Source of the DNA: an uncultured Planctomycetales bacterium
GTDB taxonomy: Bacteria > Omnitrophota > Gorgyraeia > Zapsychrales > JANLHA01
Assembly: GCA_964489065.1 (NCBI GenBank)
Contig: CAZAXH010000007.1
Coordinates: 74,672-138,671, forward strand
Direction of reading: 5' to 3'
Length of the DNA stretch: 64,000 nucleotides
The notes below the pieces were generated by a model. The model was not told the DNA's origin and searched no databases. It saw nothing but the letters and a program-made list of their open reading frames with translations. Position 1 is the first letter of the stretch. Each line of letters opens with the position of its first letter. A program made the translations under genes and the position numbers. Shown piece after piece: positions 26,222 through 49,143 of the stretch.

Positions 26222-26222
26222 C

Positions 26223-28330: not shown

Positions 28331-30253
28331 ATGAAAACATCTCACCGTCCGTTGGCAGATTCCGTTGAAATCCTGCATTCTTTCTTTTCGGCGGTTTTCC
28401 TTCCCTTTATTCTGGAAATCCCGGTCATCAGCCTTTTTTTCGGCACACAATCCTTAAAATTTCTCCTCCCGTTTATTTTTATGATTCTTTTGCCGGTTAA
28501 AATCGCCCTGTTTGCCGGGATATACGGCAGCCTGTCTATTCTGGCGTCGCAGCAAGAATATATCTTGACCGGCCCGCTTTTCCGGAGCCAAATCAAAAAA
28601 TTTTGGGGCCCTTATGCAGTCGTGCAATTTTTTCTGTTTCTCTTTCAGTTTGTTTCTTTCCTGGTCCGACCTTCCCTGGATTATACCTACTGGAACATCA
28701 TTCTGGAACCGGTCGCCGTCATGCTCTTTTGCATCTACATCCTCAAACGCAGTCACTTTGCCGGGGAAGCCGGTCCCCTCTTCAAGGTCAGGATTTCTCC
28801 CCGTTCCGCGATGCTGTTGGTGGGGCTCGTAGCCATGCAGATATTTTGTCAATTATTATTGAAACAGGGGAAACCGACGACGCCCCTGCCGGCGCTGGGG
28901 CTCTTGCTGGCCACGAAATATATTCACGCCGTCATGGTCATTTTCTTTAACCTGATTATATTCCAAGAGAGTTCCTACCACGTCCGACACCCTCAACCCC
29001 AAAAAGAACTCTTGCTGATCAACCCTTTAGGAGGAGGATCTATCCTCGAACTCTTAACATCCGTCATCCTGCGGTTTTACCCTCCGGTCTTTGTCGTTCT
29101 CTCGGCCCTGACTCCGGATGATTATACCGTCCGGAGTTTCTCAAGGGTTTTCTGGCGGTCCCGGTATGTCCGTCCAGGGCGGCTGGTGGCCATCACCTGT
29201 TTTACGAGCAACTGTTTTGAAGCGTACAAAATCGCCAAAGAATTCCGGAGGGCCGGATCCACCGTTATCATGGGGGGGCCCCATGTTTCCTTCGTCCCGC
29301 AGGAGGCCATGGAATTCTGCGACAGTGTCGTTGTCGGCGAGGTGGAAGGCATCTGGCCGGAAGTCGTCAGAGACTATGAAAATAACCGCCTTCAAAAAAT
29401 TTATGAAAGCCGCCCCGCGGACGAAACGGTTTACGAAACAATTTATCAAAAACTCCTCAACTCCCCTCCGGAAATCATCTACAACTATCTGGAAGCCAGC
29501 CACGGCTGTAAATTCCGCTGCTCTTTCTGCTGCGTCTCCGCCCTCTGCCAGGGCCGCGTGGGGCACAAAACGGTCGAACAGGTCACCGCCCTGATCAAAA
29601 AACTGCAAACAAAATACAAGATCATTGCTTTTCTTGACAACAACATCTATTCTGACCCGGCGTATGCCAAACAGTTGTTCACGGCCATGAAGCCCCTAAA
29701 AATCAAATGGATGGCCAATTGCAGCATCGATATCGCCGCCAATGAACCCATTTTAAAACTCGCCCGGGAAAGCGGGTGCCAGGCCCTGCTCGTTGGGTAC
29801 GAGATCAGCACCTATTCCTTCGAAAAAAAGCAGGGCGAAAAATTCGCTCTGGCCGAAAAGTATGTGGAATTGACGCGAAAAATCCAAAAGACGGGAATCC
29901 GCGTGGAAGGGCACTTCATTATCGGGTTTGATTCAGACCGGCCGCAAGATATCCTCAAATACTGGCAATGCTGCTTCCGGATTTTCCCCCAATGGACCAG
30001 CCTGTCGGTTCTAACACCCCTGCCGGGCACCAGGCTTTACCGGGACATGCTCTCCGAAGAACGTATCCTCAACCAAAATTGGAGGCACTACTCCTGCTAT
30101 TGGCCGGTGTTCCAGGCCAAACATTTCTCCCACACATTGTTGAGCTGGCTCCACCCGGTCCTCTTTTTTATTTTTCTCTTTACCACCTGCCGGGCGGGAG
30201 TGATCCTTCTTATCGTGCTGATCGCCACGGTTCTGGGAAGCCTGCTTCTCTAA
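28331..30253 (+). CDS. membrane-anchored B12-binding (class B) radical SAM enzyme, paralog 1
   Basis: ~200-aa 6-TM N-terminus; B12-binding region (..VAITCFTSN..IMGGPHVSF..); CKFRCSFC = CxxxCxxC; C-terminal TM. Confidence 0.8.
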   Translation: MKTSHRPLADSVEILHSFFSAVFLPFILEIPVISLFFGTQSLKFLLPFIFMILLPVKIALFAGIYGSLSILASQQEYILTGPLFRSQIKKFWGPYAVVQFFLFLFQFVSFLVRPSLDYTYWNIILEPVAVMLFCIYILKRSHFAGEAGPLFKVRISPRSAMLLVGLVAMQIFCQLLLKQGKPTTPLPALGLLLATKYIHAVMVIFFNLIIFQESSYHVRHPQPQKELLLINPLGGGSILELLTSVILRFYPPVFVVLSALTPDDYTVRSFSRVFWRSRYVRPGRLVAITCFTSNCFEAYKIAKEFRRAGSTVIMGGPHVSFVPQEAMEFCDSVVVGEVEGIWPEVVRDYENNRLQKIYESRPADETVYETIYQKLLNSPPEIIYNYLEASHGCKFRCSFCCVSALCQGRVGHKTVEQVTALIKKLQTKYKIIAFLDNNIYSDPAYAKQLFTAMKPLKIKWMANCSIDIAANEPILKLARESGCQALLVGYEISTYSFEKKQGEKFALAEKYVELTRKIQKTGIRVEGHFIIGFDSDRPQDILKYWQCCFRIFPQWTSLSVLTPLPGTRLYRDMLSEERILNQNWRHYSCYWPVFQAKHFSHTLLSWLHPVLFFIFLFTTCRAGVILLIVLIATVLGSLLL

Positions 30254-30882
30254 CCTGCCAAATGCGGTGACAGAGGCCGCTGTTGCCTTAAGCGGATCCC
30301 TTCATACACGACAGCCGTATTCAGCCCGTACTTGCAGGATAAATAGACCACACAAAAAACCAGTATACTGCGACCGACATCGGGCCAAGGCAATAAATAG
30401 CCGGCCAGGAACAATTTTCGCAGGCAATTATCCGACATGGATATCGCATCCACGAGAGACAGGATCCCGTAACGGCGGGACAACTGCTCGGCTATCTGAA
30501 AAAGACTCATCATCCGGAAATCTTCGGGAGAGAAATGATTTTTGAGCAAGAGAGAAGCCAAAAATACCAGGCGCTGTTTTTGAAGGTATCCGATGTATTG
30601 AAAAGCAATAAACAATCCTACAGCCAACAGAAACGGGAAAGGATTTCGGGTGACCCAAGAGAGGGCCGCAAAAACAATGGCTCCCAGGAAGACCGCATCA
30701 GCGGCCCGGCTCCAGTTTCTGTAAGTCGCGTATGGTTTCGCATGGGTAGCCAGATCGCGCCTAAAGACATCCTGAATTCGGCCGGAGCCAAAAAGATAAT
30801 GAAACCAGCGTCCGGTATAAAAATCGTAACGGATCGATTTCTGCAATGTTTCAAAACTACTGATGGGCTCCAAGGTCACCAC
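30250..30882 (-). CDS. polytopic membrane protein, convergent partner of radical SAM paralog 1
   Basis: 210 aa, GTG start; shares FSPE..L[FY]QI[AG]E..SLVD block with 48505..49143. Confidence 0.45.
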   Translation of the reverse strand: MVTLEPISSFETLQKSIRYDFYTGRWFHYLFGSGRIQDVFRRDLATHAKPYATYRNWSRAADAVFLGAIVFAALSWVTRNPFPFLLAVGLFIAFQYIGYLQKQRLVFLASLLLKNHFSPEDFRMMSLFQIAEQLSRRYGILSLVDAISMSDNCLRKLFLAGYLLPWPDVGRSILVFCVVYLSCKYGLNTAVVYEGIRLRQQRPLSPHLAG

Positions 30883-30951
30883 AAGAACTCCATTTCAAAT
30901 CAGGACTCGGCCCGTTTCCCAAACGGCCGGGCCTTTTTTTCAACCAATCCC

Positions 30952-31863
30952 TTACGGGAATGTGCAACGGTATTCGCTCTTTTCTGTAATTTTCATGGAA
31001 GGTGCAGCCGCCGTTGCCGGAATCTCAACAATCTTCTGGCTATTTTCCGAATGGATCATCATCGTGTCCGGCTCTAATATCCGGATTCCGAATCCCCTGA
31101 TTTTTAGCCCGGCCTTCATGGGATCCGGGCTAAGCTTGGCGGAAGGGTTCCGGCCCCCTGTCTGGCCGGCCGTTTCCAGATCATCCGCCTCCGTGGCATA
31201 ACGGAAAACAATCTTGACGCACTCCTGATCTCCGCATCGCTGTTTACTTTCGATTTTCGTACGAACATAATACACCGCCTTCCCCCCCGTGGGGAGCGGA
31301 TATTCCCTGGCATCAATCCACGCATCCCCCAGACGCACCTCCGTACCGACCAGGCCCCCAACACGGGACTCCCACTCCGCAGCCGCCTTGCTGGAGAGCT
31401 CTTGCACCTTAATCAAATTCATGAATGACTGGACCTTCTCTGCCGGAATTTTTTCCCGGATGTCCATTTCCAGATTCTCGTATCCAGACAAGGAAACAAC
31501 TTTCCCCTGAGCGTCCGCCTCGATGGAAACAACGCTTTCCTGAATCAACTGGGTCAAAGGGTCCCGGACAACATCCCCGTTACGTTTAATCACAACAGAC
31601 ACCGGTTCCGTAACAAATAAATACCCGCCGTCCTTTGTCTTTGTTATTTTTATCTCAGACACAACCGTCCCCTCGCTGATCTGCTGCCCGGCCATCCCCA
31701 TATCCATCGTAACATGGGAATACGCTGTAGCCTGATAATGGACACCCGATGGCGGGTTAAAACGGAAACGGATCTCCCCGGCCTGAACGTCAGCGGCCCG
31801 GGCCGCCAAGGGGCAGAACTGCAAAACCAGCCAAACCCATACCACGCAATGTATTTTCTTCAC
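30952..31863 (-). CDS. secreted hypothetical protein
   Basis: Signal peptide MKKIHCVVWVWLVLQFCPLAARA; no recognisable domain. Confidence 0.4.
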   Translation of the reverse strand: MKKIHCVVWVWLVLQFCPLAARAADVQAGEIRFRFNPPSGVHYQATAYSHVTMDMGMAGQQISEGTVVSEIKITKTKDGGYLFVTEPVSVVIKRNGDVVRDPLTQLIQESVVSIEADAQGKVVSLSGYENLEMDIREKIPAEKVQSFMNLIKVQELSSKAAAEWESRVGGLVGTEVRLGDAWIDAREYPLPTGGKAVYYVRTKIESKQRCGDQECVKIVFRYATEADDLETAGQTGGRNPSAKLSPDPMKAGLKIRGFGIRILEPDTMMIHSENSQKIVEIPATAAAPSMKITEKSEYRCTFP

Positions 31864-31918
31864 AACTCGCCGTCCTCTATTTCTTAAAAACGAATCGCTC
31901 GCTTCCCTGCCGTCCCGC

Positions 31919-33784: not shown

Positions 33785-35890
33785 TTAGTCTAAGGATAAA
33801 GGCATTTTTTTATAAACCTGCAAAGCGTCCTCATAAAACTGGGTGGCGGCCAGGCCGTCCTGACGAAGCCCCCGCAAAAAAAGCTCAAATTTCCTTATAA
33901 CCGTTCTCGTCAAAACCCGCTCTTCGAGAGACAAAACAGTGTCTTCCGAAAAACGGCCCCCCAGCCGCATCAGGGCATCATGCGATTTCTTAAAATTCCG
34001 CTGATCCTCGACATAAAGCCAGGCCAGGTCCATATAGGCATTCGCCAGCTGACACCTCTCGTTCACAGACAGGACAGGGAGTTTTTCCATAATATGAACC
34101 GCCTGTTCATAACTCTGAATGGCCGGCTGGATGCTCCCCCGGATTTTATGCCCCCGGGCAGTCCCGGCCAAAAGACGGGCACGGATGCGCAGTAACTCGT
34201 CAGGATCCTGATTCGAGATAAGCCCAAGCCCCCTCTGATACAGGTCCATGCTCAAGGAAAAACCGCGGCTATCCTGCCATCCCGCCAAAGGGGTGATGTC
34301 GGTCGGAGGGGCGAAAAGGACGGAGGAGATAAATTCTTCCAGCAGGACATCCGCGCTCTCGGCATAATACTCGGCGGCTGTTTTTTTATTTTCAGAGGCA
34401 TGAGCATCGGCCCATTCCACCAGAGCCGTTGTGTAAAGAATCGACAAACGGTACTGCCGAAGGGATGCATACGTATGAACCAGAAAACGAAAATATTCGA
34501 GTTTCTCCGAGACGTCGTCCCCTAACGGCTGTTCCATCCGAAAAGCCAGCAACTGATTAACCCGGGAAATGGGCGGCCAAAGAACCGCCCGCATATCCTC
34601 CCGCGTCACGACAGGGCGGGCAACCGGACCCGGGCTGGGAGGAACCGGGGCGACGACCCCTGTCGTTCCAGACGGCAAAGTCGCCCGGGAAAAACGTTTT
34701 CGGAAAAAATTTTCCGTCATCGCCAGGGCCAATAAAACCAGCAGGCCGGCGAATACATAAAGTGCGACCGGCCTTTTACCCGGCATCAGGGCGGTCGCCA
34801 GATCATCCAAAGCCGTATGAGAAGATTCCCTGGGGACAAGGTGCGCCGAAGGGTCTCCATAGAGGACATAGGTGGCCCAGAAAATCATACCCTCCCCCGC
34901 GGACTCAAGCAGTTTCAACCGGGCCTCCCGGACAGCCGCGCCAACGGATTTCCCCCGGCTGATCTGTAGATAAAACTCCCGGGAAAATTGAGCAGCCACA
35001 TGGTCCGGGACTTCTAACAATGTCCCCAAAAAATGCTTAACCCCCGCATATAAAAAGGCGTTAGCGATACTGCAGAACGCCCGCTCCGTATCGGCAATGA
35101 CCATCTTAGAAGGCGCAACGCCGGCGGACTGACAGGCATTGGCAAAAACCAAAAACGGCAAAGGCGCACCGCCGCGCATCTGAATAATATCGACCGCGCG
35201 CAAAATCCCGTCATCAAGCTTCCATCCGCTTTTCACCGGATCATCATAATTATATTCATTATGTCCGGCCAGATGCAGGACATCATAGTCCCGCACATTC
35301 TTAACGACATAATCCGTGGTAATGCGTTTCAGTTTCGTCGTGACGCGGAACAAACTCTCCTGTTGATCAAGGGCCTGACGGATATTAAACGCTTCGGTCC
35401 TGGCCTCCGGGAGATCCCCCACAGGATCCGCCAGGACCAGCATCTTCAAAGGCAACTCGGCTCTCCGGGGAGGCACGGGGAAAGAAGGATTTTTTGTCCG
35501 CACCGAACGCCCCAGATTGTATTTCAAAGCCAGGAAATTCTTCCCGTCATGCAGGATTTCCCATGGAATCTGGATCAGCGTTTCATCCACAAGAATCATA
35601 ATGTCCTGGATATTCTCCTCCTCTAAACGGATTTTCACCCCGTCACTTAAAAGCTGATCGAAAAGCGCCCTCCCCACCTTTTGCAATTCCACGGCGAGGC
35701 CGGAGGCCAATGTCCCCGCTTCATTACTCCGGTTCATCAAACGGACGGCATCGCCGCATAACCGCTCCACCATTATTTTATTGAGCGGGATTTCATCAAA
35801 ATGGCGCATCGTGGAACTGCTCTCGTAAAGGCTGACCGTCAGAGAGGTCCGCGTCAGGATGACTTCTAAAATATGCGTAACGTTGATCAT
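33785..35890 (-). CDS. CHAT-domain (caspase-like) protease with C-terminal TM and TPR-like helical region
   Basis: ..VLHLAGHNEY.. and ..LVFANACQSA.. = His/Cys dyad of the CHAT domain; ATGA start overlap with anti-sigma gene. Confidence 0.6.
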   Translation of the reverse strand: MINVTHILEVILTRTSLTVSLYESSSTMRHFDEIPLNKIMVERLCGDAVRLMNRSNEAGTLASGLAVELQKVGRALFDQLLSDGVKIRLEEENIQDIMILVDETLIQIPWEILHDGKNFLALKYNLGRSVRTKNPSFPVPPRRAELPLKMLVLADPVGDLPEARTEAFNIRQALDQQESLFRVTTKLKRITTDYVVKNVRDYDVLHLAGHNEYNYDDPVKSGWKLDDGILRAVDIIQMRGGAPLPFLVFANACQSAGVAPSKMVIADTERAFCSIANAFLYAGVKHFLGTLLEVPDHVAAQFSREFYLQISRGKSVGAAVREARLKLLESAGEGMIFWATYVLYGDPSAHLVPRESSHTALDDLATALMPGKRPVALYVFAGLLVLLALAMTENFFRKRFSRATLPSGTTGVVAPVPPSPGPVARPVVTREDMRAVLWPPISRVNQLLAFRMEQPLGDDVSEKLEYFRFLVHTYASLRQYRLSILYTTALVEWADAHASENKKTAAEYYAESADVLLEEFISSVLFAPPTDITPLAGWQDSRGFSLSMDLYQRGLGLISNQDPDELLRIRARLLAGTARGHKIRGSIQPAIQSYEQAVHIMEKLPVLSVNERCQLANAYMDLAWLYVEDQRNFKKSHDALMRLGGRFSEDTVLSLEERVLTRTVIRKFELFLRGLRQDGLAATQFYEDALQVYKKMPLSLD

Positions 35891-36564
35891 GAAGAGCTTT
35901 CCAGCCAGAGATCAATCCCGGCTCGCGGCAAGGTGTTTTCTGCAATGATAATTTTATATTTCCCGGGGGTCATCCCTTCAAACATGACGCTCTCTCCCGC
36001 GCAATCCTTATCCTCCAATTCCCCCTCCTCATCCCAAAGAGTCACCCGGAAACGTTTCGACGCAGGCCAAGCCTGGCCCGGATTCAGGGTAACCCCCAAT
36101 GTTGAACGGTTATGCTCCCCGGCTGAAAGTTCTCCCCTCACTAAAAGGTCCCCAAATTTTTTTTGAAATACGGATGTGTGGCTCGCGCCCTTCCCTCCGG
36201 CCCTCAAAACATGTCCCGGGACGATCTGCGGACCGACCAGAATCTGGCCGGTTGTTTTCACCATCCGCAACACACCACGGGCGACAACCGCAACGACAAA
36301 AAGGACTCCGGGCCGGAGGCCCTGATGAACAAGGGTTTGGGCCGTTCGGGAAAGGCCCTCCGGGAGGGGAACAAACCCCTCCTTGTCCTGGAGCCGTTGA
36401 ATATCCATGACGGCACGCACATCTTCACGCAGACGGGTATCCCCGGCCATCAAGTTTTCCATCCTGTCCTTCTCTGCGGGTGACAGAAGACCCTGGGCAT
36501 AAGCGGCGATCCATTCATCGCCCACCCTGGCCCTTCTGTCGAAAGACTTATCTCTCACGGACAC
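35887..36564 (-). CDS. anti-sigma factor (membrane-spanning), cognate to upstream ECF sigma
   Basis: N-terminal anti-sigma-like helix (..WIAAYAQGLLSPAEKDRMENLMAGD..), central TM (VLFVVAVVARGVL), periplasmic tail. Confidence 0.5.
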   Translation of the reverse strand: MSVRDKSFDRRARVGDEWIAAYAQGLLSPAEKDRMENLMAGDTRLREDVRAVMDIQRLQDKEGFVPLPEGLSRTAQTLVHQGLRPGVLFVVAVVARGVLRMVKTTGQILVGPQIVPGHVLRAGGKGASHTSVFQKKFGDLLVRGELSAGEHNRSTLGVTLNPGQAWPASKRFRVTLWDEEGELEDKDCAGESVMFEGMTPGKYKIIIAENTLPRAGIDLWLESSS

Positions 36565-36586
36565 ATCCCTTCCTTCTCCTCCCCGG

Positions 36587-37192
36587 TCAATACATCAGGC
36601 TCTTGTCTTCGGCCATCCGTTTCATTTTTTTCAAAAGCCTCTGTTTACGGACGTAAAAACACGGCACGGAAATACCCAGCAAGCCGGCGATCTCCCTGGG
36701 TTTCATATTATCAGAAAAAAACATACGGTATAAATTGCGTTCCTCCTCACTCAAATCCGCCAAAAGAAGTTGCGCCGCCTCTTTTGAAAAAAAGCAGTCC
36801 CACCTCCGCCTGAAAACTTCTGCCGAAAGGGCGTCCAGAATTTCGGCGTTTTTAATCGGTTCAATCCGGTGGCTATACAGACCAGAAAAACGGCGGTGAC
36901 GGGTTCGCAGGAAATCGATGGTCTTCCGGATCACAACCGTCCTGAGATAATGGCGCAAGTGACAGCCGTTGCGTCCTTCATAAGCCCTGAGAATCGCATA
37001 ATCATTTTCCAGCAGGCAGAGGAAAAAATCATGATACAAATCCGAGAAGACTTCCGAAGAATCCTGATAAGCAAACCGGCGGAACGTCCGGAGGATGGAG
37101 TCGTAAATGAGGGGCGAAAACTGTTCGATAAAAATATCCCAACTTTGTTTGTCCCCCGAAAGACATTTCTTTAAAAGAGTATGATCGTCCAT
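36587..37192 (-). CDS. ECF (sigma-70 family) RNA polymerase sigma factor
   Basis: Region 2 (..FFLCLLEN..) and region 4 HTH (..REIAGLLGISVPCFYVRKQRLLKKM..). Confidence 0.85.
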   Translation of the reverse strand: MDDHTLLKKCLSGDKQSWDIFIEQFSPLIYDSILRTFRRFAYQDSSEVFSDLYHDFFLCLLENDYAILRAYEGRNGCHLRHYLRTVVIRKTIDFLRTRHRRFSGLYSHRIEPIKNAEILDALSAEVFRRRWDCFFSKEAAQLLLADLSEEERNLYRMFFSDNMKPREIAGLLGISVPCFYVRKQRLLKKMKRMAEDKSLMY

Positions 37193-37201
37193 CGGACCGG
37201 A

Positions 37202-38020
37202 TTACTTTTTCAAGGCTTCGTCCATTTCACGCAAATCATAAAATGTTTGCACATGATGTTCAGCCTGCATAAGCATATAATCAAGAACCAAATCATGACG
37301 GCCCGCGTAAACAGACACGCACGGCTCCTCCACCTCGTTCTGCGTTAACGGGTCATATTGACACGCAACATATCCTTCGGCTTCCAGGCAGGCGGTATCT
37401 TGCTCTTCCCCGTCTGGCGAGGCAACCTGAATATCGTCATAATAATAAATGCCGTTCCAATAGTTAAAGAATTCAATTTTATCCACCCGGGAAAGGTCAA
37501 AATCTTTGGGGAGCTGGCTGAATAAAATCATCAATTGGGTCCACTCTCCCGGTAAGGCTTTGTCAAGAGTCCAAATCCCGATCCCCTGTTCATGGTACAA
37601 ACCGTGATCAAAAAACTTTACCATCACTGTGTGGGCCCCGGGATGCATGGGTTCGGACCATATCCAGAATGTAAGACGGTCAAAACAAGCCGGGATAAAG
37701 TTCACATTATACGTCTGCGTCATGGACGCCACGCCGGTCCCTGATTGCAGAGCTTCTGCATCGGGGATGGCGACCCGCCAGGAATACTGACCGGAATGAA
37801 CCGGGTGCCCCTCCTGGGTCAAGGCCGCAGATGCCTCCCCAAAAGCCCAGCCATATTCCGGGATATCGGTATCAGAAGAGGTTTGGGGAGGAGTCCCGTT
37901 GGCTGGCTCGAAATCCTGGTACATCATCGAGGCCAAGGCATGCGACTGAATACACCCAACAATAATCAGGGGCAGCAAGACTGGGAAGACCCTATTTTTG
38001 TTAACACAAATTTGGAACAT
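37202..38020 (-). CDS. secreted hypothetical protein (first gene of ECF operon)
   Basis: N-terminal signal/anchor; W/Y-rich; no domain recognised. Confidence 0.35.
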   Translation of the reverse strand: MFQICVNKNRVFPVLLPLIIVGCIQSHALASMMYQDFEPANGTPPQTSSDTDIPEYGWAFGEASAALTQEGHPVHSGQYSWRVAIPDAEALQSGTGVASMTQTYNVNFIPACFDRLTFWIWSEPMHPGAHTVMVKFFDHGLYHEQGIGIWTLDKALPGEWTQLMILFSQLPKDFDLSRVDKIEFFNYWNGIYYYDDIQVASPDGEEQDTACLEAEGYVACQYDPLTQNEVEEPCVSVYAGRHDLVLDYMLMQAEHHVQTFYDLREMDEALKK

Positions 38021-38156: not shown

Positions 38157-39785
38157 TTAAAACCCTGGTTTAAATTCGTAAATAACCGCATTCCTCCCTT
38201 TATATCGCGGTGTCAAACGACCATAAGCGGAGAAGGATGCCGTTACAAAGGCCTCCACCTCTTTGCTATAATGAAGGAAAATCAGCCATGTCCTTTTATC
38301 GGGGTTGAGAAACAACGGACCCATAAAACGCAACAGGCTGCCGTTTTCGTCCATACGCTCAAATAAAAAGCATTCATGAGCCGCATATAAAGAAACAGGA
38401 ACATACGCCGACTCGTTGTCCCATCGCACATCCTGGCCCAACCGCCAAACAGGCGTCTGACGTAAAATACCAGGGTTATTTGTTTGCTGCCCCTCTCCGG
38501 CTCCTAAAGAGCCCACAAAATATTTCAAATAATACATGTATATCTGCAAACCATATTCGGAAAGGACAATTTGATCCCCCGGCTCATACAAAGACAGCAG
38601 GGTTCTTACCGCCCCTCGGTTGTCTTCCTTGACAGCAGGACGGTAGAAAAGGCTCAACGATTGCCATAAAGGATAAGCCACAACCAGCATCGTCAGGAGC
38701 ACGGCCGCCAGCGTTTTTCTTTTTCCGGTTTTTTCCGCCGCCGCCGCAATTCCCGCCGCCAGCATCATATACAAAGCCGGAGCGAGGAAAAGCAACGACC
38801 GCGGGAAGGACGGATACATCCGCCAACCGACAGCAGCCATAAACAACAAAAACGGCACCATCAAAAGCAACCCTTTTGATGTATGCTTTTGATAAACGGA
38901 AAGCCCTCCCCACAGAGCAAACACGGCGACCCAAGGCCCGGGCATCATCCCCAAAGTCTGCGAGAAGAAAACCTGTCCCAGGGAGCTGGCCAACCCTATC
39001 CAACCCGGGATCCCGTGAACGTGCGGGAAATGCATAATTCTATCACCCGTAAAAGACTGCGACCCCAAAGTAGGAATGACATAATATTGCACAAGCCGCA
39101 AAACACTGCCGAGCCACCAGAGGGCCATAACCCCAAAACTGAACAACCCCGCCCGGTCTTTTCTTTTAAATAACCGGCATCCGGCCAGGATAGCCGCCGG
39201 AATCCAGATAAAAAGCGCCGAATACGACAACCAGGGCGCCAGCATCCCCACCCAGCCGAACAGATAAATCGGATCTTTCCGGTAGCCGTGATCACCAAGA
39301 AAAGCAAAAACCGCATAAATCATCAAAGCGGTCAGGACATCACTGGCATACGTATTGACTTCCGCGGAAAAAAGAATTAAAAACGGAGAAAACACGAAAA
39401 AATTTAAAGCCAGAAGCGCCCCGGCCCGGTTCAAATAGCGGGAAGCGACGGCGTAAAACAGCGGAACAGAAACGCACCCCGCCGCAAGTGGCCATAAGCG
39501 CGCGCTCCATTCAGCATCCCCGAAAAAAGTCAGCGAGGCTTTAAGGACGATATTAAATAATGCCGGCTTAATAGGCACCGTCGGGTGAGCAAAACCACCG
39601 CTTAAAAAAGCACGAAACGGCACATGCAACGCCGGGAGGGTCACATTAATTTCATCAAGCCACAAGGGCGGATTCCGAAAGAAATACGCCAACCGCAGGC
39701 CGACCCCGGCCATCATTAATACCAGTGCCCCACAACGCCTTGTAATATGATTTTGGGAATCCCTCTGCAAAGGTTTAATATCCAT
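38157..39785 (-). CDS. ArnT/PMT-like (GT-C, family 39/83) integral-membrane glycosyltransferase
   Basis: 10+ TM helices; N-terminal ..RLAYFFRNPPLWLDE.. motif typical of GT39/ArnT; start 39785 uncertain (ORF extends to 39938). Confidence 0.5.
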   Translation of the reverse strand: MDIKPLQRDSQNHITRRCGALVLMMAGVGLRLAYFFRNPPLWLDEINVTLPALHVPFRAFLSGGFAHPTVPIKPALFNIVLKASLTFFGDAEWSARLWPLAAGCVSVPLFYAVASRYLNRAGALLALNFFVFSPFLILFSAEVNTYASDVLTALMIYAVFAFLGDHGYRKDPIYLFGWVGMLAPWLSYSALFIWIPAAILAGCRLFKRKDRAGLFSFGVMALWWLGSVLRLVQYYVIPTLGSQSFTGDRIMHFPHVHGIPGWIGLASSLGQVFFSQTLGMMPGPWVAVFALWGGLSVYQKHTSKGLLLMVPFLLFMAAVGWRMYPSFPRSLLFLAPALYMMLAAGIAAAAEKTGKRKTLAAVLLTMLVVAYPLWQSLSLFYRPAVKEDNRGAVRTLLSLYEPGDQIVLSEYGLQIYMYYLKYFVGSLGAGEGQQTNNPGILRQTPVWRLGQDVRWDNESAYVPVSLYAAHECFLFERMDENGSLLRFMGPLFLNPDKRTWLIFLHYSKEVEAFVTASFSAYGRLTPRYKGRNAVIYEFKPGF

Positions 39786-39906
39786 ATCCGGACCGTCAAG
39801 AGACAAAAACGGAAAACGCAGGTTCAGCGCCCTGAACTTCGGGAAGGAAAAAATTAAGAAGAAAAAAGACATCCATTTATTCCAAAATTCCAGCCGAAGA
39901 GAATCA

Positions 39907-41673
39907 TTATTTCTTAATAAGATTTTTAAGAAGCGCACAAAGTTCGTCGTATTTAAACGGTTTCACCAGAACCCCTTTAAACCCGTATTCTTGATAACGC
40001 GCCATGACCGGGTCATTCGAATAACCGCTGAAAGCCACGGCTTTAACCTGGGGATCGAGTTTCAGCAGGGTCTGCAGGGTATCTTTGCCTCCCATCCCGC
40101 CCCGGATTGTCAAATCAAGGATAACGACGTCAAAATCCGCCTTCTGACCCCTGGCCTCTTGGTATCGCCGAAGCGCCTCTTCTCCATTACAGACCAATTC
40201 AACTTCATATCCGATATTTTTAAGAATCCTCCCCAAGACCTCTCTCAAAGACTCTTCGTCATCCATGAGCAAAATTCTCCCAGAGTGCATATAGAGCGGG
40301 ACTTCCGCCGGAGATGGCTCAGGAGGAGAAAAGCCGGCCGCGGGGATATAGAGATAAAATGTCGTGCCTCTGCCGACGGCTGAATCCACGGTGATATAAC
40401 CGTCGTGACGTTCTATGATTGAAAAAACGGTAGCCAAACCCAGTCCGTTACCGGATTTCTTCGTTGTAAAATACGGATCAAAAATTTTTGGAAGAAGTTC
40501 TTCCGGTATCCCTTCTCCTGTATCCGCAAAGGAGATCCGGATATATTGTCCTTTCTCTAACGGGAGCACCCCTCTCCGGTCGATAATCAGATTCTTCGCC
40601 TCAATCGTAAGTTGGCCGCCCTGAGGCATGGCCTGCTTGGCATTGAGCACGATATTCTGGATAACCTGGTTAAATTGTCCCTTGTCAACTTCAACCGACC
40701 AAAGATCGTCAGGCAAAAGAAATGTCACAAGCACATTCGAGCCATGCAAAACAAAAGTGGCAGACTCTTTAATCAGTTCGCCGACCGATGCCAGTTTCTT
40801 AACCGGAGTCCCTCCCTTGGAAAAAGTTAAAAGCTGCTGCGTCAGGCCCTGGGCACGCAAAGCCTGGGTTTCAATTTCACCCAACAGGGTATGAGTTTCG
40901 TCCGGCGAAACCATGGACATCTTCAGGAGCGTCAAATTCCCCAAGACAGCCGTCAGGACGTTATTAAAATCATGAGCAATCCCGCCGGCTAGGGTTCCCA
41001 GAGACTCGAGTTTTCTCTTTTTAAAAATTTCGTCCTCCATTTTCCGTTTTTCGGTGATATCCCGGAACACCAAGACCGCGCCGATAATGTTACTGTCAAA
41101 ATCCCGGATCGCCGCGATACTGTCAGTAATAAAATATTCCTTCCCGTCCCGGGAGGAAAGCAATCCCAGGGAAATCTCAACCAGTCCCCCATGACTCAAG
41201 ACACTGTTCATCAAGCCTATCTTCCGCTGCTTGGTCTTGGGATCTACAAGGACAAAAATCTCATCAAATGTTTTCCCCACCGCGTCCTGCTGCGGCCAGC
41301 CGGTGAGAGTTTCCGCGACGTTGTTGATCAGGGTAACCCGCTGGTGCCGGTCGATGGTGATAACACCATCCCCGATAGAACGCAGGGTGACAGAAAGCCG
41401 TTCTTTCTCCGCCGCGATGGATTTTTCAACCCGTTTTCTTTCCTCAATTTCCGCCCGAAGACGGTTATTAATTTCCGAAATCTCCTGCGAGCTGAGTTCA
41501 AAAGCCCTTTCCGTCAATTTACGGTCCGCCTCGAACCCTTCATAAGCGTCATCCACGGCCCTTAAGAAACCTGCCCATTCCGACGGGATAGTGTAGTCGT
41601 GGCCCATGTATTTTTTAAGCTGTCGTGCAAGCAGTTTGTTCATTCTTTCCCTCTCATGGACGGACATCCTCAT
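39907..41673 (-). CDS. hybrid sensor histidine kinase (PAS-PAS-HisKA-HATPase-REC)
   Basis: ..HDFNNVLTAVLGN.. H-box, ..DTGEGI..GNGLGLA.. G-boxes, C-terminal receiver (..VVILDLTIRGGMGG..VLVKPF). Confidence 0.85.
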   Translation of the reverse strand: MRMSVHERERMNKLLARQLKKYMGHDYTIPSEWAGFLRAVDDAYEGFEADRKLTERAFELSSQEISEINNRLRAEIEERKRVEKSIAAEKERLSVTLRSIGDGVITIDRHQRVTLINNVAETLTGWPQQDAVGKTFDEIFVLVDPKTKQRKIGLMNSVLSHGGLVEISLGLLSSRDGKEYFITDSIAAIRDFDSNIIGAVLVFRDITEKRKMEDEIFKKRKLESLGTLAGGIAHDFNNVLTAVLGNLTLLKMSMVSPDETHTLLGEIETQALRAQGLTQQLLTFSKGGTPVKKLASVGELIKESATFVLHGSNVLVTFLLPDDLWSVEVDKGQFNQVIQNIVLNAKQAMPQGGQLTIEAKNLIIDRRGVLPLEKGQYIRISFADTGEGIPEELLPKIFDPYFTTKKSGNGLGLATVFSIIERHDGYITVDSAVGRGTTFYLYIPAAGFSPPEPSPAEVPLYMHSGRILLMDDEESLREVLGRILKNIGYEVELVCNGEEALRRYQEARGQKADFDVVILDLTIRGGMGGKDTLQTLLKLDPQVKAVAFSGYSNDPVMARYQEYGFKGVLVKPFKYDELCALLKNLIKK

Positions 41674-42817: not shown

Positions 42818-43085
42818 TAAGTTTATGACAGTTTGAAATATTCTAACACAGCAAGAAACTTTTTGCACCAGAAGGTCTTTAAAATACCGGGATCTTTTTT
42901 ATCCTATGCGTCTCCCGGATTTTAACAGAAACCACTCTCTCTCCCTCGCCAAATCAGGCCCAAAATCTTCGCCGGTATTCCGTTGCTTCCCTCTTCAAAA
43001 AATAATATAATGTTTTGCATGATTTTTCCCCCCTTCTTTGTATAAACCAGGGCCGGGGATCCGGTCCAAAGCCAGGAGTTTTATT

Positions 43086-44720
43086 ATGCGCGTCATGTTC
43101 GTCGCGATCGCTTACGAACAACTCGGCATCAGCATGCTTTCTGCCCTAGCAAAACAACGCGGCCATGACGTGCAGCTTGCCTTCAGCGTGGCGCTCTTTA
43201 ATGACCGGCTGCATACCTCCTGGCACCCAATCCCCCGTTTTTTTGACGATACCCGCGATGTCCTAAAGGATGTCGAACGTTTTAAACCTGATGTCCTGGC
43301 CTTTTCCCCGCTATCCGGGTCCTACCGCTGGTGTCTTCAGGTCGCCCAGAACGCAAAAATTTTATTCCCGGGGATGAAAACGTTATTTGGGGGCGTCCAC
43401 GCGTCGGCCGTGCCGGACCGCGTCATCACCCGCCCGGAGGTGGATTATATCTGCGTGGGGGAAGGGGATGTGGCCTTTCTGAAAACCCTTTCAGCTATTA
43501 AAAAAAACGACACAGCCTCTCCTCTGCCCAACACCCGCTACAAAACACCCGATGGACGCATCATTCAGGGCCCTCAAATTGGATTTATACCCAATCTCGA
43601 CAGCCTCCCTTTCTTCGACAAATCGTTGTGGGAAGATTATTTCAATATGTCTGATTATTACATCACCATGGCGTCCCGAGGGTGTCCGCTACGGTGCACG
43701 TTCTGCTTTAACAGCTTTTTCGCCAACCTCCCTAAACAAAATAGTGGGAAATACGTTCGATACCGCTCCCCGGCCCATATGCTGGCCGAACTGCGTTGGG
43801 CCAAGAAACGGTATCGAACTAGAATGATCGGATTTTTCGATGATGTCTTCACGTTGGACAAAAAGTGGCTCAAGGTATTTCTCGACGGGTATAAAAAGGA
43901 CATTCACACGCCGTTTCAAATTTTCACCCACGTGAACCATATGGACGCAGAAACAGTACAGTGGCTGGCCGAAGCGGGCTGTGACGCCGCGGAAATCGGG
44001 ATGGAAACATTAGATGAAGAATACAAAAGCAAGTACCTGAACCGGCATGAATCCAAGGAAACGACTGCGGACGTGATCCGCTTAACCCGCAAACATCATA
44101 TCCGTTCCAGGATGGATCATATGCTGGGCCTCCCCGGAGAGCCGCCGGAGGCCCAGGAAACAGCCCGTCAGTTTTATATTGAAAATCCTCCTTCGAGGAT
44201 CAACTCCTACTGGGTTAATTATTTCCCCGGTACGGAACTGCAAAAAACCGCGATCCAATTCGGAATCATCACGGAAGCCGATGCCGAAGCTATCAACGAA
44301 GGATTTTCCCTGGACCTTGACTCCTATAACCGAAGCCACAAACTTTTTACCCAGGAACAACTGCGACACTGCCGGACATATCAGATCATTTTCAAACTTA
44401 TCCCTTTCTTACCCGAAGGGCTTCTCCGTCGGCTCAAACCGAGGATATTCAAGGCCCTGCCGGCATTTATCAGTGAAGGGCTGGCATTCATGACCGACCT
44501 AATCGGCGGGATTGCCACCGGCGAGGCGGAATTCCTGATTTACACAAAATATGTCCTCTTTCATATATACCGCACGCTTTGGGGAAAACTGGGACTTCGC
44601 AAACCCCGCAGGATGCGATGGCTCACCCCAGACCCGAGAGTGGTGTGCGTCCACACGGCAGAGGAGGGTGGGCAAGAAGGCAGTTGTGATTGCCAACGGG
44701 ATTTTCCGGGAACATCATGA
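43086..44720 (+). CDS. B12-binding (class B) radical SAM enzyme, soluble
   Basis: Trimmed to ATG 43086 (AGGAG RBS); B12-binding N-domain; CPLRCTFC = CxxxCxxC. Confidence 0.8.
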   Translation: MRVMFVAIAYEQLGISMLSALAKQRGHDVQLAFSVALFNDRLHTSWHPIPRFFDDTRDVLKDVERFKPDVLAFSPLSGSYRWCLQVAQNAKILFPGMKTLFGGVHASAVPDRVITRPEVDYICVGEGDVAFLKTLSAIKKNDTASPLPNTRYKTPDGRIIQGPQIGFIPNLDSLPFFDKSLWEDYFNMSDYYITMASRGCPLRCTFCFNSFFANLPKQNSGKYVRYRSPAHMLAELRWAKKRYRTRMIGFFDDVFTLDKKWLKVFLDGYKKDIHTPFQIFTHVNHMDAETVQWLAEAGCDAAEIGMETLDEEYKSKYLNRHESKETTADVIRLTRKHHIRSRMDHMLGLPGEPPEAQETARQFYIENPPSRINSYWVNYFPGTELQKTAIQFGIITEADAEAINEGFSLDLDSYNRSHKLFTQEQLRHCRTYQIIFKLIPFLPEGLLRRLKPRIFKALPAFISEGLAFMTDLIGGIATGEAEFLIYTKYVLFHIYRTLWGKLGLRKPRRMRWLTPDPRVVCVHTAEEGGQEGSCDCQRDFPGTS

Positions 44721-44826: not shown

Positions 44827-45633
44827 TCAGCCGCCATATTCAGAAATCGCGGAAAACAGGGCATCATACGTAAGCGACCCGATAAAAGAGGTGGCTCCCG
44901 CCGCCAAGCATTGAGTCCGGATTTTCTCCATCTGCGACTCTTTAATTTTCTGTTTTTGGGGGTCTTCCGGCTGATTCGCGTAGACTAATATCGTCAAATT
45001 CTTCAAAAGCGGGTAACTGCGCAATGTCTGAACAGTCTTATGCGCGGGGATATCCGGACGCAGGGCATCAACAAAAAGAATGTCCGGTGGCGCTTTTAAC
45101 ACTTCATTGAGCAACTCTTCTTGTTGCCCCACTGTTTTAATCTCAATTTGGGAGTCCGGAGCCTGAATCAATTTAAGCAAATCCTGAATGAACTGGCTCT
45201 GCTCGACCTGAATCATAATCCGGCGGCTGATTCCCTGCGCCTTAACCGCTTCAATTGTTTTTTGGAGGCTAGTGCGCTTCAATATCCGCTCGACCGTATC
45301 CAGCAAAGTCTGTCCATCGAACGGTTTGGCCAAAAAATCAGATGCCCCCAGTTCTCTAAAAGTCTGCTCGTGATTTGCGTAAGCGCTAAACACCACGATA
45401 GGCGTATTGGCATTTTTTTTCGAGTCCCTCAATTTCTTAAAAAAATTGTAGCCGTCCAGACCGGGCATGACAATGTCTGTAAAAATAATATCGATATCCT
45501 GCACTAGGGCAATATCAAACCCGTCCTGGCCGTCAAAAGCAATGAAGGGCATATAATCCGCCCGTTCCAGCTTCCGGCTCATAAACTGCACCACATCCCT
45601 CTCATCATCCACCACCAAAATCTTTTTTTTCAT
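44827..45633 (-). CDS. response regulator with receiver plus degenerate second domain
   Basis: ILVVDDE..DIIFTDIVMPGLDG..LAKPF; GGAGGGAGG RBS. Confidence 0.8.
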   Translation of the reverse strand: MKKKILVVDDERDVVQFMSRKLERADYMPFIAFDGQDGFDIALVQDIDIIFTDIVMPGLDGYNFFKKLRDSKKNANTPIVVFSAYANHEQTFRELGASDFLAKPFDGQTLLDTVERILKRTSLQKTIEAVKAQGISRRIMIQVEQSQFIQDLLKLIQAPDSQIEIKTVGQQEELLNEVLKAPPDILFVDALRPDIPAHKTVQTLRSYPLLKNLTILVYANQPEDPQKQKIKESQMEKIRTQCLAAGATSFIGSLTYDALFSAISEYGG

Positions 45634-45852
45634 ACTCCCGCCCTCCCTCCAAATATAAACGCCTAATCCCTTAAATAGCAGGATTAGGCGTCAGTTTCCG
45701 CGCGATGTTGTGATTCGGTAGCCAGGCTATCCTAACTATTATAGGATCCTTCAGCTTTGCGTCCCCATCTTACGATGGGTTTGCCTTTTCGTCATTTTAT
45801 CTTAAAAAACCATTATAATTCATTTAAAATATAAAATAATTTTCTCCAAAAA

Positions 45853-45890
45853 ACAAGGGCCGATCCCAAACCCGAAACGGCCCTTGCTCC
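45853..45890 (-). terminator. intrinsic terminator after lipoprotein gene
   Basis: CAAGGGCCG-15 nt loop-CGGCCCTTG followed by TTTTTTGG on minus strand. Confidence 0.45.
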
Positions 45891-45906
45891 AACTTTCAAA
45901 TCTCAA

Positions 45907-46353
45907 TTACCGTCTCACGCGGCCGAGTTTCCCCTGAATGTCTCCGTAAATGTCTTCCAAAAGGCGGGTGTCATACCCCAAAATCCAACCCCTATCATCC
46001 AGCCAGTTCGACTCGCATTTGACCTGAACAGTATCCCAGTCCGGAGTCCCTTTGACCTTAACGACGACCCGGGAACGGTAACGGTCAACAACCTGCTGCC
46101 CGGAAAAATAGGAATATTTCCAGGAAGAACGGATATAGCCCGCATCCCGTTCCAGGACTTCCAAATCATATTTCTGGCTCAACGTATCAACCAAGACTTC
46201 CCATATTTTATCGTTTCCCAACCCTTCTCTGATTTCAACCGTCTTCCATATCCCGGGTTCATCCTGCGTCCGCATAAACGTCTTCGGCGCTGTCGTACAT
46301 CCAACTAAAAGCAGGGCGAAGACTAATCCCACACCGATGTGCCATTTTTTCAT
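45907..46353 (-). CDS. hypothetical lipoprotein
   Basis: MKKWHIGVGLVFALLLVGC lipobox signal. Confidence 0.5.
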   Translation of the reverse strand: MKKWHIGVGLVFALLLVGCTTAPKTFMRTQDEPGIWKTVEIREGLGNDKIWEVLVDTLSQKYDLEVLERDAGYIRSSWKYSYFSGQQVVDRYRSRVVVKVKGTPDWDTVQVKCESNWLDDRGWILGYDTRLLEDIYGDIQGKLGRVRR

Positions 46354-46525
46354 GCTCTTCTCCTTTGTTTTTCGACTCTGATTTTACCGGGACAGTGAAC
46401 TTCCCCACAATTTTTTATTAACTATAAATGTTTACTATAAATGACATTACCAAATTTGTCAATATACCCGCCCGTAACCCCACCGTCAAAACTTTGCCAA
46501 TTCTCCAATTGCCTCCACGAATTTA

Positions 46526-48478
46526 ATGAAGTATAGTATCCCTATGGAAAAACACCAGCCGGTTATTTTATCAAAAACCTTCGACATCCTTCATTCCGCC
46601 CTTCTTTGCATTGTGCTGGCGTGCGTACTCAACTCTCTTTACGTGGACCCCCCTGGTTTTATCCGGGCGGTGCCTTTTTTACAGATCTTTTATGTCTTAG
46701 GATTAATCAGTCTTAAAATATATTTATTAAGCGGGATTTACGGAAACCTGGTTGCCTTGGCTTCCCAGGAAGAACCGGCTATTGACAGGAAATCCTTTTT
46801 CGGAGACTCCCGGAAATACTGGAAGCTTTATTTAACATGTGTGGGCCTGCATTTTATGGCCAATATCCTTTTGGCTGTCACGTTCGACCATTTTAACGTG
46901 AGCCGGAAATTCGAAAATTTTTTCTTTGATTTCCCGTTGCTTTACTTTTTGGGGTTTTTTATCATACAGGATAAATATTCAAAAATCACCCGATTGCGGC
47001 ATTCAAAAATTAAAATCGGACCCCTGCAAGCTTGCGGCGTGGTCCTCTTGTTCATCCTCAACGCCGTCATCATCAATTTAAACCATATCCTGCCCCTGAA
47101 AAACAGTTGGCTATCTAATGAGCTGATATTTCTTTATACCTATATTCTTTTTTTTACATTTGTTTATTTTACCACCCTTATCTTAAGCGCTTATCCGGAA
47201 ATCGAGCAGTTCTACGATAAGCCCCGTGAAATATATCTTGTAAACCCGGTATCCGGAGGCATTATTCTCGGTTCCTTCTTTTTCCGGTTTTATCCGCCGG
47301 TATTCGTGACTTTAAAGGCCCTGACCCCTCCGGGTTATTGTTTTCGGGAGTTCAATAAAGTCACCTGGAAAAAAAGGTTTTTTAAAAGCGGGAAACTCGT
47401 TGCGATCACGTGCTTCACGTCCAACAGTTATGAGGCCTACAAAATCGCCAAAGAATTCCGGAGGTGCGGCTCAACAGTTGTTATGGGAGGCCCCCATGTC
47501 ACTCACCTTCCGGATGAAGCCCTGCAATTCTGCGACGCGGTGGTGATCGGGGAGGCAGAAAACGCCTGGGGGGATATCGTCCGTGACTATGAACAAGGCG
47601 CGTTAAAACGCGTTTACGAGGAAGCCCCGTCCGATGATTACTATCAAGAAGTCCACACCGCGCTCCTGAACTCTCCCCCCGATATCATCGAAAACTTTCT
47701 TGAAACAACACGGGGATGCAAATATCACTGCCATTTCTGTTCTATCCCTCGCCTCGCCAAAGGGCATCTCCGCAACAAGCCTATGGAGCAGATCGTAGAG
47801 TTGATAAAAAAAATCAACCCGCCCAAAGGGCACTTCCTGCTCTTTATCGATAACAACATTATTTCCGACCGCGAATATGCTAAAAAACTTTTTGAAGCCA
47901 TAATCCCGTTGAAAATAACCTGGTGCAGTCAGTGCTCCATTGATATTGCTAAAGATGACGAGTTGCTGGCCTTGGCCCGGGAAAGCGGCTGTGCCCAGTT
48001 ATTGGTCGGCTATGAAATCACCGGTTATGCCGATGATAAAAGCAAAAAGGGCAAGATGGCTTTGGCGGATCAATACATCGCACTCACCCGAAAGGTGAAA
48101 CGGTTGGGGATATCCGTTAAAGCCCATTTCATTATAGGCTTTGATTCAGACACCTACACGACCTTATGGGATTTGTGGCGTTTCTGTTTTCAGCTTATGC
48201 CCTATGTCACGGTCGTTTCCGTGTTAACGCCTTTACCGGGGTCACAGTTGTTTCACAGCATGCTGAAAGAAAACCGGATCGCGAATTATAACTGGCGTTA
48301 TTACGGCCTGAACAATCTTGTTTTCAAGCATCCCAAATTCCAGCACACCCCGTTTCAGCTCATGTTCCCGGTGCTGTTTACCCTCTACCTCGCGACCACA
48401 TGCTCTTTCGGACTGTTCGTCACAGCCATCATCCTTCTGGATGCTTACTTTTTCGATCTCCGGCATTTTCTCTTCTAG
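46526..48478 (+). CDS. membrane-anchored B12-binding (class B) radical SAM enzyme, paralog 2
   Basis: Collinear homology with 28331..30253 (..LSGIYGNLVALASQEE.., ..VAITCFTSNSYEAYKIAKEFRR.., CKYHCHFC). Confidence 0.8.
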   Translation: MKYSIPMEKHQPVILSKTFDILHSALLCIVLACVLNSLYVDPPGFIRAVPFLQIFYVLGLISLKIYLLSGIYGNLVALASQEEPAIDRKSFFGDSRKYWKLYLTCVGLHFMANILLAVTFDHFNVSRKFENFFFDFPLLYFLGFFIIQDKYSKITRLRHSKIKIGPLQACGVVLLFILNAVIINLNHILPLKNSWLSNELIFLYTYILFFTFVYFTTLILSAYPEIEQFYDKPREIYLVNPVSGGIILGSFFFRFYPPVFVTLKALTPPGYCFREFNKVTWKKRFFKSGKLVAITCFTSNSYEAYKIAKEFRRCGSTVVMGGPHVTHLPDEALQFCDAVVIGEAENAWGDIVRDYEQGALKRVYEEAPSDDYYQEVHTALLNSPPDIIENFLETTRGCKYHCHFCSIPRLAKGHLRNKPMEQIVELIKKINPPKGHFLLFIDNNIISDREYAKKLFEAIIPLKITWCSQCSIDIAKDDELLALARESGCAQLLVGYEITGYADDKSKKGKMALADQYIALTRKVKRLGISVKAHFIIGFDSDTYTTLWDLWRFCFQLMPYVTVVSVLTPLPGSQLFHSMLKENRIANYNWRYYGLNNLVFKHPKFQHTPFQLMFPVLFTLYLATTCSFGLFVTAIILLDAYFFDLRHFLF

Positions 48479-48504
48479 GCATCCCGGCGCGGTTATACGG
48501 TTCC

Positions 48505-49143
48505 CTAACGAAAGTTCCGATAAAAAAACGGCTGATTCACGATAAACGAAACCCCGAAAAAAAGCGCGAAGAAGGCAACCTGCCTTAAAATGAAAATATT
48601 TATACTGGTAATGTAAGCGACCAGAAAAAAAGAAAACACAAGAGTAAACCGGTAAATTCTATCCAAGTGGTACATCGTGTCAACGAGAGAAGGAATTTTA
48701 TGCCTTTCACTATATATCTCCCCGATCTGATACAACGTGGTCTTGGCAAGGATTTCCGGGGAAAAATCCCGTTCAATAAAATATAGGCTGATATCGGCAA
48801 TGTGGCTCTTCTTGACTGTTAACGTCCTAAAGAAAAGAAACAAACCGGCCAACGCCGGCACGGCAAGGGCATAGCTCTTCATCTCGAAAGCCAAAGAACA
48901 TAAAGCACCCATGCCGATGCCAAGGCACCACAGCAGCATTTCACACCGCCGTATGGCCCGATAGGCGGATTGGATGCCCGGCAGGCCGTCGCTCCTCACT
49001 TTAAACGACGGCTGCAGAATCAGGAATAAAAACCACCGACTGACGTATTTGTCAACCAAAATCGTGCTTCTTAACCCTTCCCTTGTGCAAAGGGGTATCA
49101 TCATGTTCCGGTATCCGTGTGCGTAAATTGCCTGTTGCGGCAT
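48505..49143 (-). CDS. polytopic membrane protein, convergent partner of radical SAM paralog 2
   Basis: 212 aa; homologous block with 30250..30882 (FSPEILAKTTLYQIGEIYSERHKIPSLVD). Confidence 0.45.
   Translation of the reverse strand: MPQQAIYAHGYRNMMIPLCTREGLRSTILVDKYVSRWFLFLILQPSFKVRSDGLPGIQSAYRAIRRCEMLLWCLGIGMGALCSLAFEMKSYALAVPALAGLFLFFRTLTVKKSHIADISLYFIERDFSPEILAKTTLYQIGEIYSERHKIPSLVDTMYHLDRIYRFTLVFSFFLVAYITSINIFILRQVAFFALFFGVSFIVNQPFFYRNFR

Follow-up and report, generated by a model that had tools for sequence, protein, structure and literature searches.

A stretch of 64,000 nucleotides from an uncultured Planctomycetales bacterium that is placed by GTDB in the Omnitrophota (assembly GCA_964489065.1, contig CAZAXH010000007.1, positions 74,672 to 138,671 of the forward strand; here called the window) contains a cassette of two genes that is present twice. 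Each copy consists of a gene for an integral-membrane protein with a B12-type domain and a radical S-adenosylmethionine (SAM) core, here called the enzyme (A1 and A2), and of a gene on the opposite strand that meets it tail to tail and encodes a helical membrane protein of about 210 amino acids, here called the partner (B1 and B2). This tail-to-tail pairing is seen in about 30 independent loci. It is kept between paralogs that are only 38 to 45% identical and with flanking genes that vary from locus to locus, and it is not due to chance. It is highly probable that the enzyme and its partner constitute a functional two-protein module. The enzyme is a new architectural variant of the class-B-type radical-SAM enzymes, and the partner is a new protein family. 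The features of the two cassettes, in window coordinates, are as follows.

28331..30253, plus strand: enzyme A1, 640 amino acids, integral-membrane B12-domain/radical-SAM protein (open reading frame, Pfam, AlphaFold2)
28331..28996, plus strand: predicted six-helix N-terminal membrane domain of A1, residues 1 to 222 (model helices, hydropathy)
28514..28528, plus strand: (A/S)GIYG..E..S.EE motif of A1 (conserved columns; KY is residues 141 and 142)
28997..30124, plus strand: predicted cytoplasmic core of A1, Rossmann-like B12-type domain and radical-SAM barrel (Pfam, model, Foldseek)
29273..29284, plus strand: GGPH of A1
29507..29530, plus strand: CxxxCxxC of A1
30125..30250, plus strand: predicted C-terminal hydrophobic two-helix hairpin of A1, residues 599 to 640 (hydropathy, model)
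30250..30882, minus strand: partner B1, 210 amino acids, helical membrane protein (open reading frame; conserved block at 30448..30534)
46526..48478, plus strand: enzyme A2, 650 amino acids, paralog of A1 built in the same way (open reading frame, Pfam)
46730..46744, plus strand: SGIYG of A2
47486..47497, plus strand: GGPH of A2
47717..47740, plus strand: CxxxCxxC of A2
48505..49143, minus strand: partner B2, 212 amino acids, paralog of B1 (open reading frame; conserved block at 48679..48765)

An earlier note on this DNA, made from the letters alone, had described these four open reading frames as two pairs of paralogs, and all four are present where it had placed them. A1 and A2 align from end to end, including the hydrophobic N-terminal third (41% identity, E value of 4e-163), and are thus collinear as had been claimed; B1 and B2 are more distant (28% identity, E value of 3e-11) and have in common the block FSPE..L(F/Y)QI(A/G)E..SLVD, located at residues 117 to 145 of B1 and 127 to 155 of B2. 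The 4-nucleotide overlap of the 3' ends of the first pair was also confirmed, with the two stop codons interleaved in CTAA (TAA on the plus strand and TAG on the minus strand), and the stops of A2 and B2 are separated by a gap of 26 nucleotides. Promoter and terminator scans at these junctions returned nothing interpretable. A near-consensus sigma-70-like site is found within B2 (window 48683..48656, minus strand; TTGACA, 16 nucleotides, TAGAAT), directed at the 3' end of A2, which is an 11-of-12 consensus match only. A protein identical to A1 is present in the database (P0001).

The co-occurrence of the two families across genomes, which the earlier note had put forward as a check, was assessed by seeding searches with either gene (loci are designated by L numbers). 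Among enzyme-seeded loci with a readable 3' flank, a convergent, abutting partner was found in all 16 (the two copies in the window, L001, L002, L016 to L020, L023, L096 to L098, and L100 to L102). Enzymes were likewise present in 14 of 15 partner-seeded loci. Thirteen of these came from species-representative genomes, 12 labeled as Omnitrophota and one as Planctomycetales, and in 12 of the 13 the membrane enzyme lay convergent and immediately downstream of the partner, the thirteenth being the locus of an orphan partner (L014); two further distant partner representatives were also paired with an enzyme. The genome count is a minimum, since the DNA pattern used in the genome scan matches only part of the partner family. 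In one of the 12 loci (L012, 5782..7750), the enzyme gene is frameshifted, being split into three or four frames, and is either a pseudogene or an assembly error. All pairs are arranged tail to tail, with 3' ends that lie between −46 and +42 nucleotides apart and that overlap in 15 of the 27 junctions measured. Multiple copies per genome are not peculiar to the window; the complete 3.36-Mb chromosome OY759724.1 contains four dispersed modules plus an orphan partner-like gene. A second enzyme gene, divergent from the partner, was seen in L006 (2..3074). Ten annotated neighborhoods contained no consistently conserved third gene beyond the frequent occurrence of genes encoding receiver domains.

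The two genes have also diverged in step. Pairwise identities among enzymes and among their partners are correlated with r = 0.95, a value reached by none of 5,000 permutations in a Mantel test; the correlation persists at r = 0.56 when only comparisons below 55% enzyme identity are considered, and the nearest neighbor is the same for enzyme and partner in 13 of 19 cases. This co-divergence indicates that the module has been duplicated and maintained as a unit over a long time. Together with the roughly 30 loci in unrelated neighborhoods, it strongly supports the functional partnership that had been proposed from the two copies in the window.

More than 250 full-length homologs of A1, each of about 640 amino acids, were recovered, and those that carry a name are almost all from Candidatus Omnitrophota, bacteria that are widespread, uncultured, very small, and possibly dependent on a host. 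The partner family is tiny: a profile of it searched against 1.84 billion representative proteins gave only 253 matches, nearly all of them stand-alone proteins of about 200 amino acids. The module is nearly phylum specific. The closest relatives outside the enzyme family (L024 to L028) are 36 to 39% identical to the core and keep the C-terminal hydrophobic hairpin but differ in having neither the six-helix domain nor a partner, the latter being absent from all four loci with sufficient flanking sequence. The partner, missing where the six-helix domain is missing, is thus tied to this domain, and this is our main ground for preferring contact with the membrane domain to recognition solely by the core. 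Relatives at a greater distance, 30 to 33% identical to the core, are soluble proteins of about 450 amino acids that did not reach the cutoff of any curated family; they occur on metagenome contigs from soil, peat, and sediment (L029 to L095) as arrays of two to five tandem paralogs.

Membership of A1 and A2 in the radical-SAM superfamily is supported by the CxxxCxxC motif, by matches to Pfam Radical_SAM (PF04055; 41.1 and 54.4 bits, respectively, against a gathering cutoff of 29.5), and by Foldseek matches at a probability of 1.00 to many radical-SAM structures. The class B layout, in which a Rossmann-like B12-binding domain precedes the barrel, is seen in the structural model, in fold matches to TsrM, MgmA, and CysS, and in a marginal match to Pfam B12-binding (PF02310; 34.3 and 33.0 bits; cutoff, 32.1). 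Both Pfam matches are confined to the C-terminal two-thirds of the proteins. The cysteines of the motif (C393, C397, and C400 in A1; C398, C402, and C405 in A2) are invariant across 112 homologs, as are G315, G316, and H318 of GGPH and many residues of the barrel within the family. A further cysteine, C483, belongs to the common SGC barrel motif. An auxiliary iron-sulfur cluster of the MiaB/RimO kind in the Rossmann-like domain was considered and rejected, as near invariance is confined to C290 and C330, which are missing from the nearest relatives.

An AlphaFold2 model of A1 built from the 112 homologs was confident throughout (predicted local distance difference test [pLDDT] of 91.6; predicted template modeling score [pTM] of 0.88). 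It contains six N-terminal helices (residues 7 to 36, 39 to 73, 81 to 112, 119 to 141, 157 to 179, and 185 to 213), a linker of about 6 residues between the sixth of these and the first strand of the core, a beta-alpha Rossmann-like domain (226 to 360), a radical-SAM barrel (about 385 to 575), and a C-terminal helical hairpin (601 to 619 and 621 to 639). The six N-terminal transmembrane helices are thus as the earlier note had described them, whereas the single C-terminal transmembrane helix that it had assumed is replaced by the predicted hairpin. The shortness of the linker and the confidence of the full-length model suggest that the enzyme is rigidly apposed to the membrane rather than loosely tethered to it. 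Hydropathy and the distribution of lysine and arginine (a positive-inside count) fit a topology with the N terminus inside and the core in the cytoplasm. Given this topology and the helix boundaries of the model, G63, G66, S73, K141, and Y142, which are among the nearly invariant residues of the membrane domain, would sit where helices 2 and 4 end on the cytoplasmic side, beside the core; the others, Y197 and F203, fall within helix 6. The domain itself had no Pfam match in the first ~225 residues of A1 and A2, no recurrent Pfam family in 20 members, and no sequence match in the PDB, so that by sequence it belongs to no described family; membership in a well-characterized family of known function would have spoken against the original proposal.

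The partner is likewise well modeled. The AlphaFold2 model of B1 (140 homologs) is all helical, with a pLDDT of 94.1 and a pTM of 0.87, and is dominated by a long hairpin (residues 45 to 78 and 81 to 116) that is hydrophobic in its middle. This is followed by a short conserved helix with the sequence TLYQIGE (SLFQIAE in B1), a loop, a helix that begins at the invariant S-L-V-D, and two final helices that are strongly hydrophobic in B2. The earlier description of the partner as a membrane protein of about 210 residues was borne out; its layout was amended in that the protein appears to consist of a long helical hairpin at its center and of another helix pair, less hydrophobic, at its C terminus. 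An alignment of 16 partner sequences has invariant positions (B2 numbering) at D31, R36, W37, F38, L41, F127, L137, Q139, E142, S152, L153, V154, and D155. The protein had no match in Pfam, NCBIfam, PADLOC, or the PDB and no fold match; it belongs to no described family and is not a generic domain of unknown function scattered at random. The idea that it might be a diverged copy of the six-helix domain was rejected (hhalign probability of 0.8%).

The core resembles several known class B systems. TsrM, MgmA, and CysS and the BchE, HpnJ, HpnR, and PhpK families share with A1 and A2 a layout in which a Rossmann-like B12-type domain at the N terminus precedes a CxxxCxxC barrel, and class B structures were matched with Foldseek E values of 1e-12 to 1e-8. 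Partial matches to class B models in NCBIfam scored 50 to 85 bits, but none of the HpnJ, BchE, PhpK, HpnR, MgmA, TIGR04072, AprD4, and Tes cutoffs was reached, the best being HpnJ (71 to 85 bits against 577.6). In contrast to all of these families, A1 and A2 have extra membrane helices, six at the N terminus and two at the C terminus, and their genes have an obligatory neighbor, that of the partner. The best structural match to the core was the radical-SAM 1,2-diol dehydratase AprD4 (PDB 6fd2; E value of 3.8e-13, TM-score of 0.68 normalized to the target), followed by MgmA and then by TsrM, CysS, and MiaB; RimO was also matched. By sequence (hmmsearch), only AprD4 (9.7e-10) and MgmA (1e-7) were matched. 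AprD4 differs, however, in being a soluble enzyme of an aminoglycoside pathway with only 16% identity, and the NCBIfam AprD4 model gave 28 to 33 bits for A1 and A2 against a cutoff of 500. The closest functional analogy is with enzymes that perform radical chemistry on membrane lipids, such as Tes, the glycerol dialkyl glycerol tetraether ring synthases and methylases, HpnP/HpnR, and the B12 radical-SAM protein of the ladderane cluster (TIGR04072). Matches to these were weak and far below cutoff (TIGR04072, 46 to 63 bits; HpnR, 29 to 36 bits; Tes, 16 bits against 450), and the module differs from them in having no linkage to lipid genes. Transmembrane anchoring of such enzymes was not mentioned in the review searched.

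To our knowledge, class-B-type radical-SAM enzymes are soluble or peripheral proteins. A literature search returned no transmembrane class B radical-SAM enzyme, no report of this module in the Omnitrophota, and no description of the partner; the publications found on this phylum mention only lipid-related radical-SAM homologs (Mss and Hbs) or an abundance of radical-SAM domains. In public databases the proteins are named "radical SAM protein" or "hypothetical protein." The architecture is consistent with its earlier description as unusual for class B, since no curated family was reached and none like it is described in the literature searched. Two other assignments were examined. A role in defense drew only a weak, generic radical-SAM match from PADLOC. 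The relationship of a precursor to its maturase, as in ribosomally synthesized and posttranslationally modified peptide (RiPP) pathways, does not fit a partner that is a confidently folded helical membrane protein of 200 to 210 amino acids encoded on the opposite strand.

We hypothesize that the two proteins of each cassette are the subunits of a radical-SAM enzyme that is embedded in the membrane and confined to the Omnitrophota. The large protein would be anchored through its six N-terminal and two C-terminal helices, and the small protein would be a dedicated, noncatalytic partner, probably docking on the six-helix domain and the core through conserved cytoplasmic elements, namely, the N-terminal D..RWF motif and the helix-loop-helix TLYQIGE...SLVD. 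The radical chemistry may be directed at a membrane-resident substrate, for example, a lipid, an isoprenoid or quinone, or a lipid-linked glycan, and the likeliest reactions would be a cobalamin-mediated methylation or a step that forms or rearranges C-C bonds, or some other functionalization of C-H bonds by radicals. The several paralogous pairs of a genome could supply different specificities. Taken as a whole, this statement seems to us about evenly balanced between right and wrong, and a number of observations weigh against it. The two genes are convergent and so are not cotranscribed, which is unusual for subunits of one enzyme. The upstream enzyme in the tandem enzyme-enzyme-partner arrangement of L018 (1..3804) has no partner of its own, the only exception among enzyme-seeded loci, and one partner-like gene, that of L014, has no adjacent enzyme and is degenerate in its motifs. 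No lipid, isoprenoid, or glycan gene was consistently linked to the module in the annotated neighborhoods. The methylation or C-C coupling of a lipid or glycan that the earlier note had put forward gained no support and met no contradiction. The scores for the B12-binding domain exceed the Pfam cutoff by only 1 to 2 bits, and neither B12 dependence nor methyl transfer is secured by the fold, because the Rossmann-like domain of AprD4, the best structural match, reportedly does not bind cobalamin. The orphan of L014 (chromosome OY759724.1, 3333..5693) encodes 230 amino acids, with SLVD degraded to SIIQ, and is divergent from a gene for a PMT_2-type membrane glycosyltransferase; a PMT_2 gene is also present within the window (38157..39938).

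One alternative concerns the chemistry alone and is compatible with a two-subunit enzyme, namely, that the Rossmann-like domain carries no cobalamin and that the enzyme performs nonmethylating chemistry similar to that of AprD4, such as a dehydration, a rearrangement, or C-C coupling. AprD4 ranks first by both fold and sequence (E values of about 4e-13 and 1e-9), the B12-binding match barely passes its threshold, and MiaB and RimO, in which the homologous N-terminal domain serves other purposes, are matched as well. However, GGPH and the whole of the Rossmann-like domain are strongly conserved, with both of its glycines and its histidine invariant; the true cobalamin enzymes TsrM, MgmA, and CysS match almost as well as AprD4; and the three conserved cysteines that an auxiliary cluster would need are lacking, with C290 and C330 absent from the nearest relatives. 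We regard cobalamin-free chemistry as a minor but real possibility. Inherited synteny with no functional link between the genes would account for the adjacency in closely related genomes, where the whole neighborhood is held in common (the window compared with L001, L016, L017, L003, L004, and L097). This explanation is effectively refuted by the counts, as paralogs below 45% identity retain this partner and its orientation in entirely different neighborhoods, the distances of both genes co-vary, and the partner family hardly ever occurs outside the module.

The main rival to the proposed two-subunit enzyme holds that the small protein is the substrate, each enzyme modifying (e.g., C-methylating) its cognate partner at a residue of the invariant cytoplasmic block, so that the expansion of paralogs would be an expansion of enzyme-substrate pairs. 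In its favor, enzyme and partner have been duplicated and have diverged one to one; the partner has invariant polar residues (Q, E, S, and D) within a short block on the cytoplasmic side; MgmA, the second-best structural match, methylates a glutamine of a protein; and among the NCBIfam matches, all of them far below cutoff, are class B enzymes that modify proteins or RiPPs. Set against this, the partner is a membrane protein of 200 residues whose fold is predicted with very high confidence and in which nothing is disordered or resembles a leader, and its invariant T..Q and S..D stand at helix starts in the manner of capping boxes, which suggests (in part on our own reading) a structural role. 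Precursor and maturase genes are normally codirectional, and these are convergent; the occurrence of the partner only with the six-helix form of the enzyme also fits contact with the membrane domain better than recognition by the core. We consider it unlikely that the partner is a substrate, and less likely again that the module as a whole is a membrane-embedded, protein-modifying radical-SAM system that has been multiplied as enzyme-substrate pairs in one phylum, with expression possibly coupled through the 3' overlap. The overlap could instead be regulatory, in the manner of an excludon, with antagonistic expression of the two genes by way of convergent transcription or of antisense overlap at their 3' ends and with the small protein as a regulator or inhibitor rather than a working subunit. 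Such an arrangement would agree with the convergence of all of the roughly 30 pairs within the distances given above, over half of them overlapping, which leaves no room for independent terminators, and with the receiver-domain genes that often adjoin the module. Yet 9 of the first 21 junctions have gaps of 17 to 33 nucleotides, the overlaps range from 4 to 46 nucleotides with no fixed RNA element conserved, tight convergent packing could reflect genome compaction, and an inhibitor would leave the restriction of the partner to the six-helix form unexplained. A regulatory function of this kind appears improbable.

If the two-subunit membrane enzyme is correct, an eight-helix integral-membrane form with an obligatory partner would extend where and how class-B-type radical-SAM chemistry is deployed. 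Because the module is multicopy and nearly phylum specific, it is a candidate for a lineage-specific modification of the envelope or of membrane proteins in the Omnitrophota. Its size of only two genes makes a test by heterologous coexpression feasible.

Other genes in and around these loci may be of interest. The window contains two more soluble B12-domain/radical-SAM genes (43038..44720, plus strand, and 58575..59999, minus strand), making four in 64 kb; their products are distant from A1 and A2 (18 and 37 bits, respectively, with a hidden Markov model of the core) and reached no NCBIfam cutoff. A block encoding a spermidine synthase, a saccharopine dehydrogenase-like protein, and a SET-domain protein (25691..28171, minus strand) is divergent from A1, and the same block is divergent from the A1 ortholog in L001 (3418..5857). 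It also adjoins the partner-less, tail-only enzyme relative of L026 (5926..8801), where it is accompanied by GreA and SpeD-like (S-adenosylmethionine decarboxylase) genes that were identified by eye. This recurrence may represent ancestral synteny or a functional hint.

Receiver-domain (response regulator) genes repeatedly adjoin the module. One is present in the window (44827..45633, minus strand); in L096 and L100 (about 4550..4920), the gene for a receiver of 121 or 124 amino acids immediately precedes that of the enzyme on the same strand, and in L098 and L102 (about 7570..8360), a 261-amino-acid receiver protein is encoded directly upstream of the partner, on the strand of the partner. 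Downstream of the second cassette lie tandem paralogs of about 725 amino acids (49453..51630 and 51646..53835, plus strand) in which a ParA/MinD-type ATPase is fused to a T2SSE (CpaF/TadA-type) secretion ATPase, a fusion that also follows the A2-type module in L097. Beyond the first cassette, the gene for a CHAT-domain protein of 701 amino acids precedes those for three small proteins, of which one matches sigma-70 region 4 (33785..38020, minus strand), and this block is kept after the A1-type module in L001; an unassigned 303-amino-acid open reading frame, CorA, and a CBM_11 protein are encoded between B1 and the CHAT block in the window.

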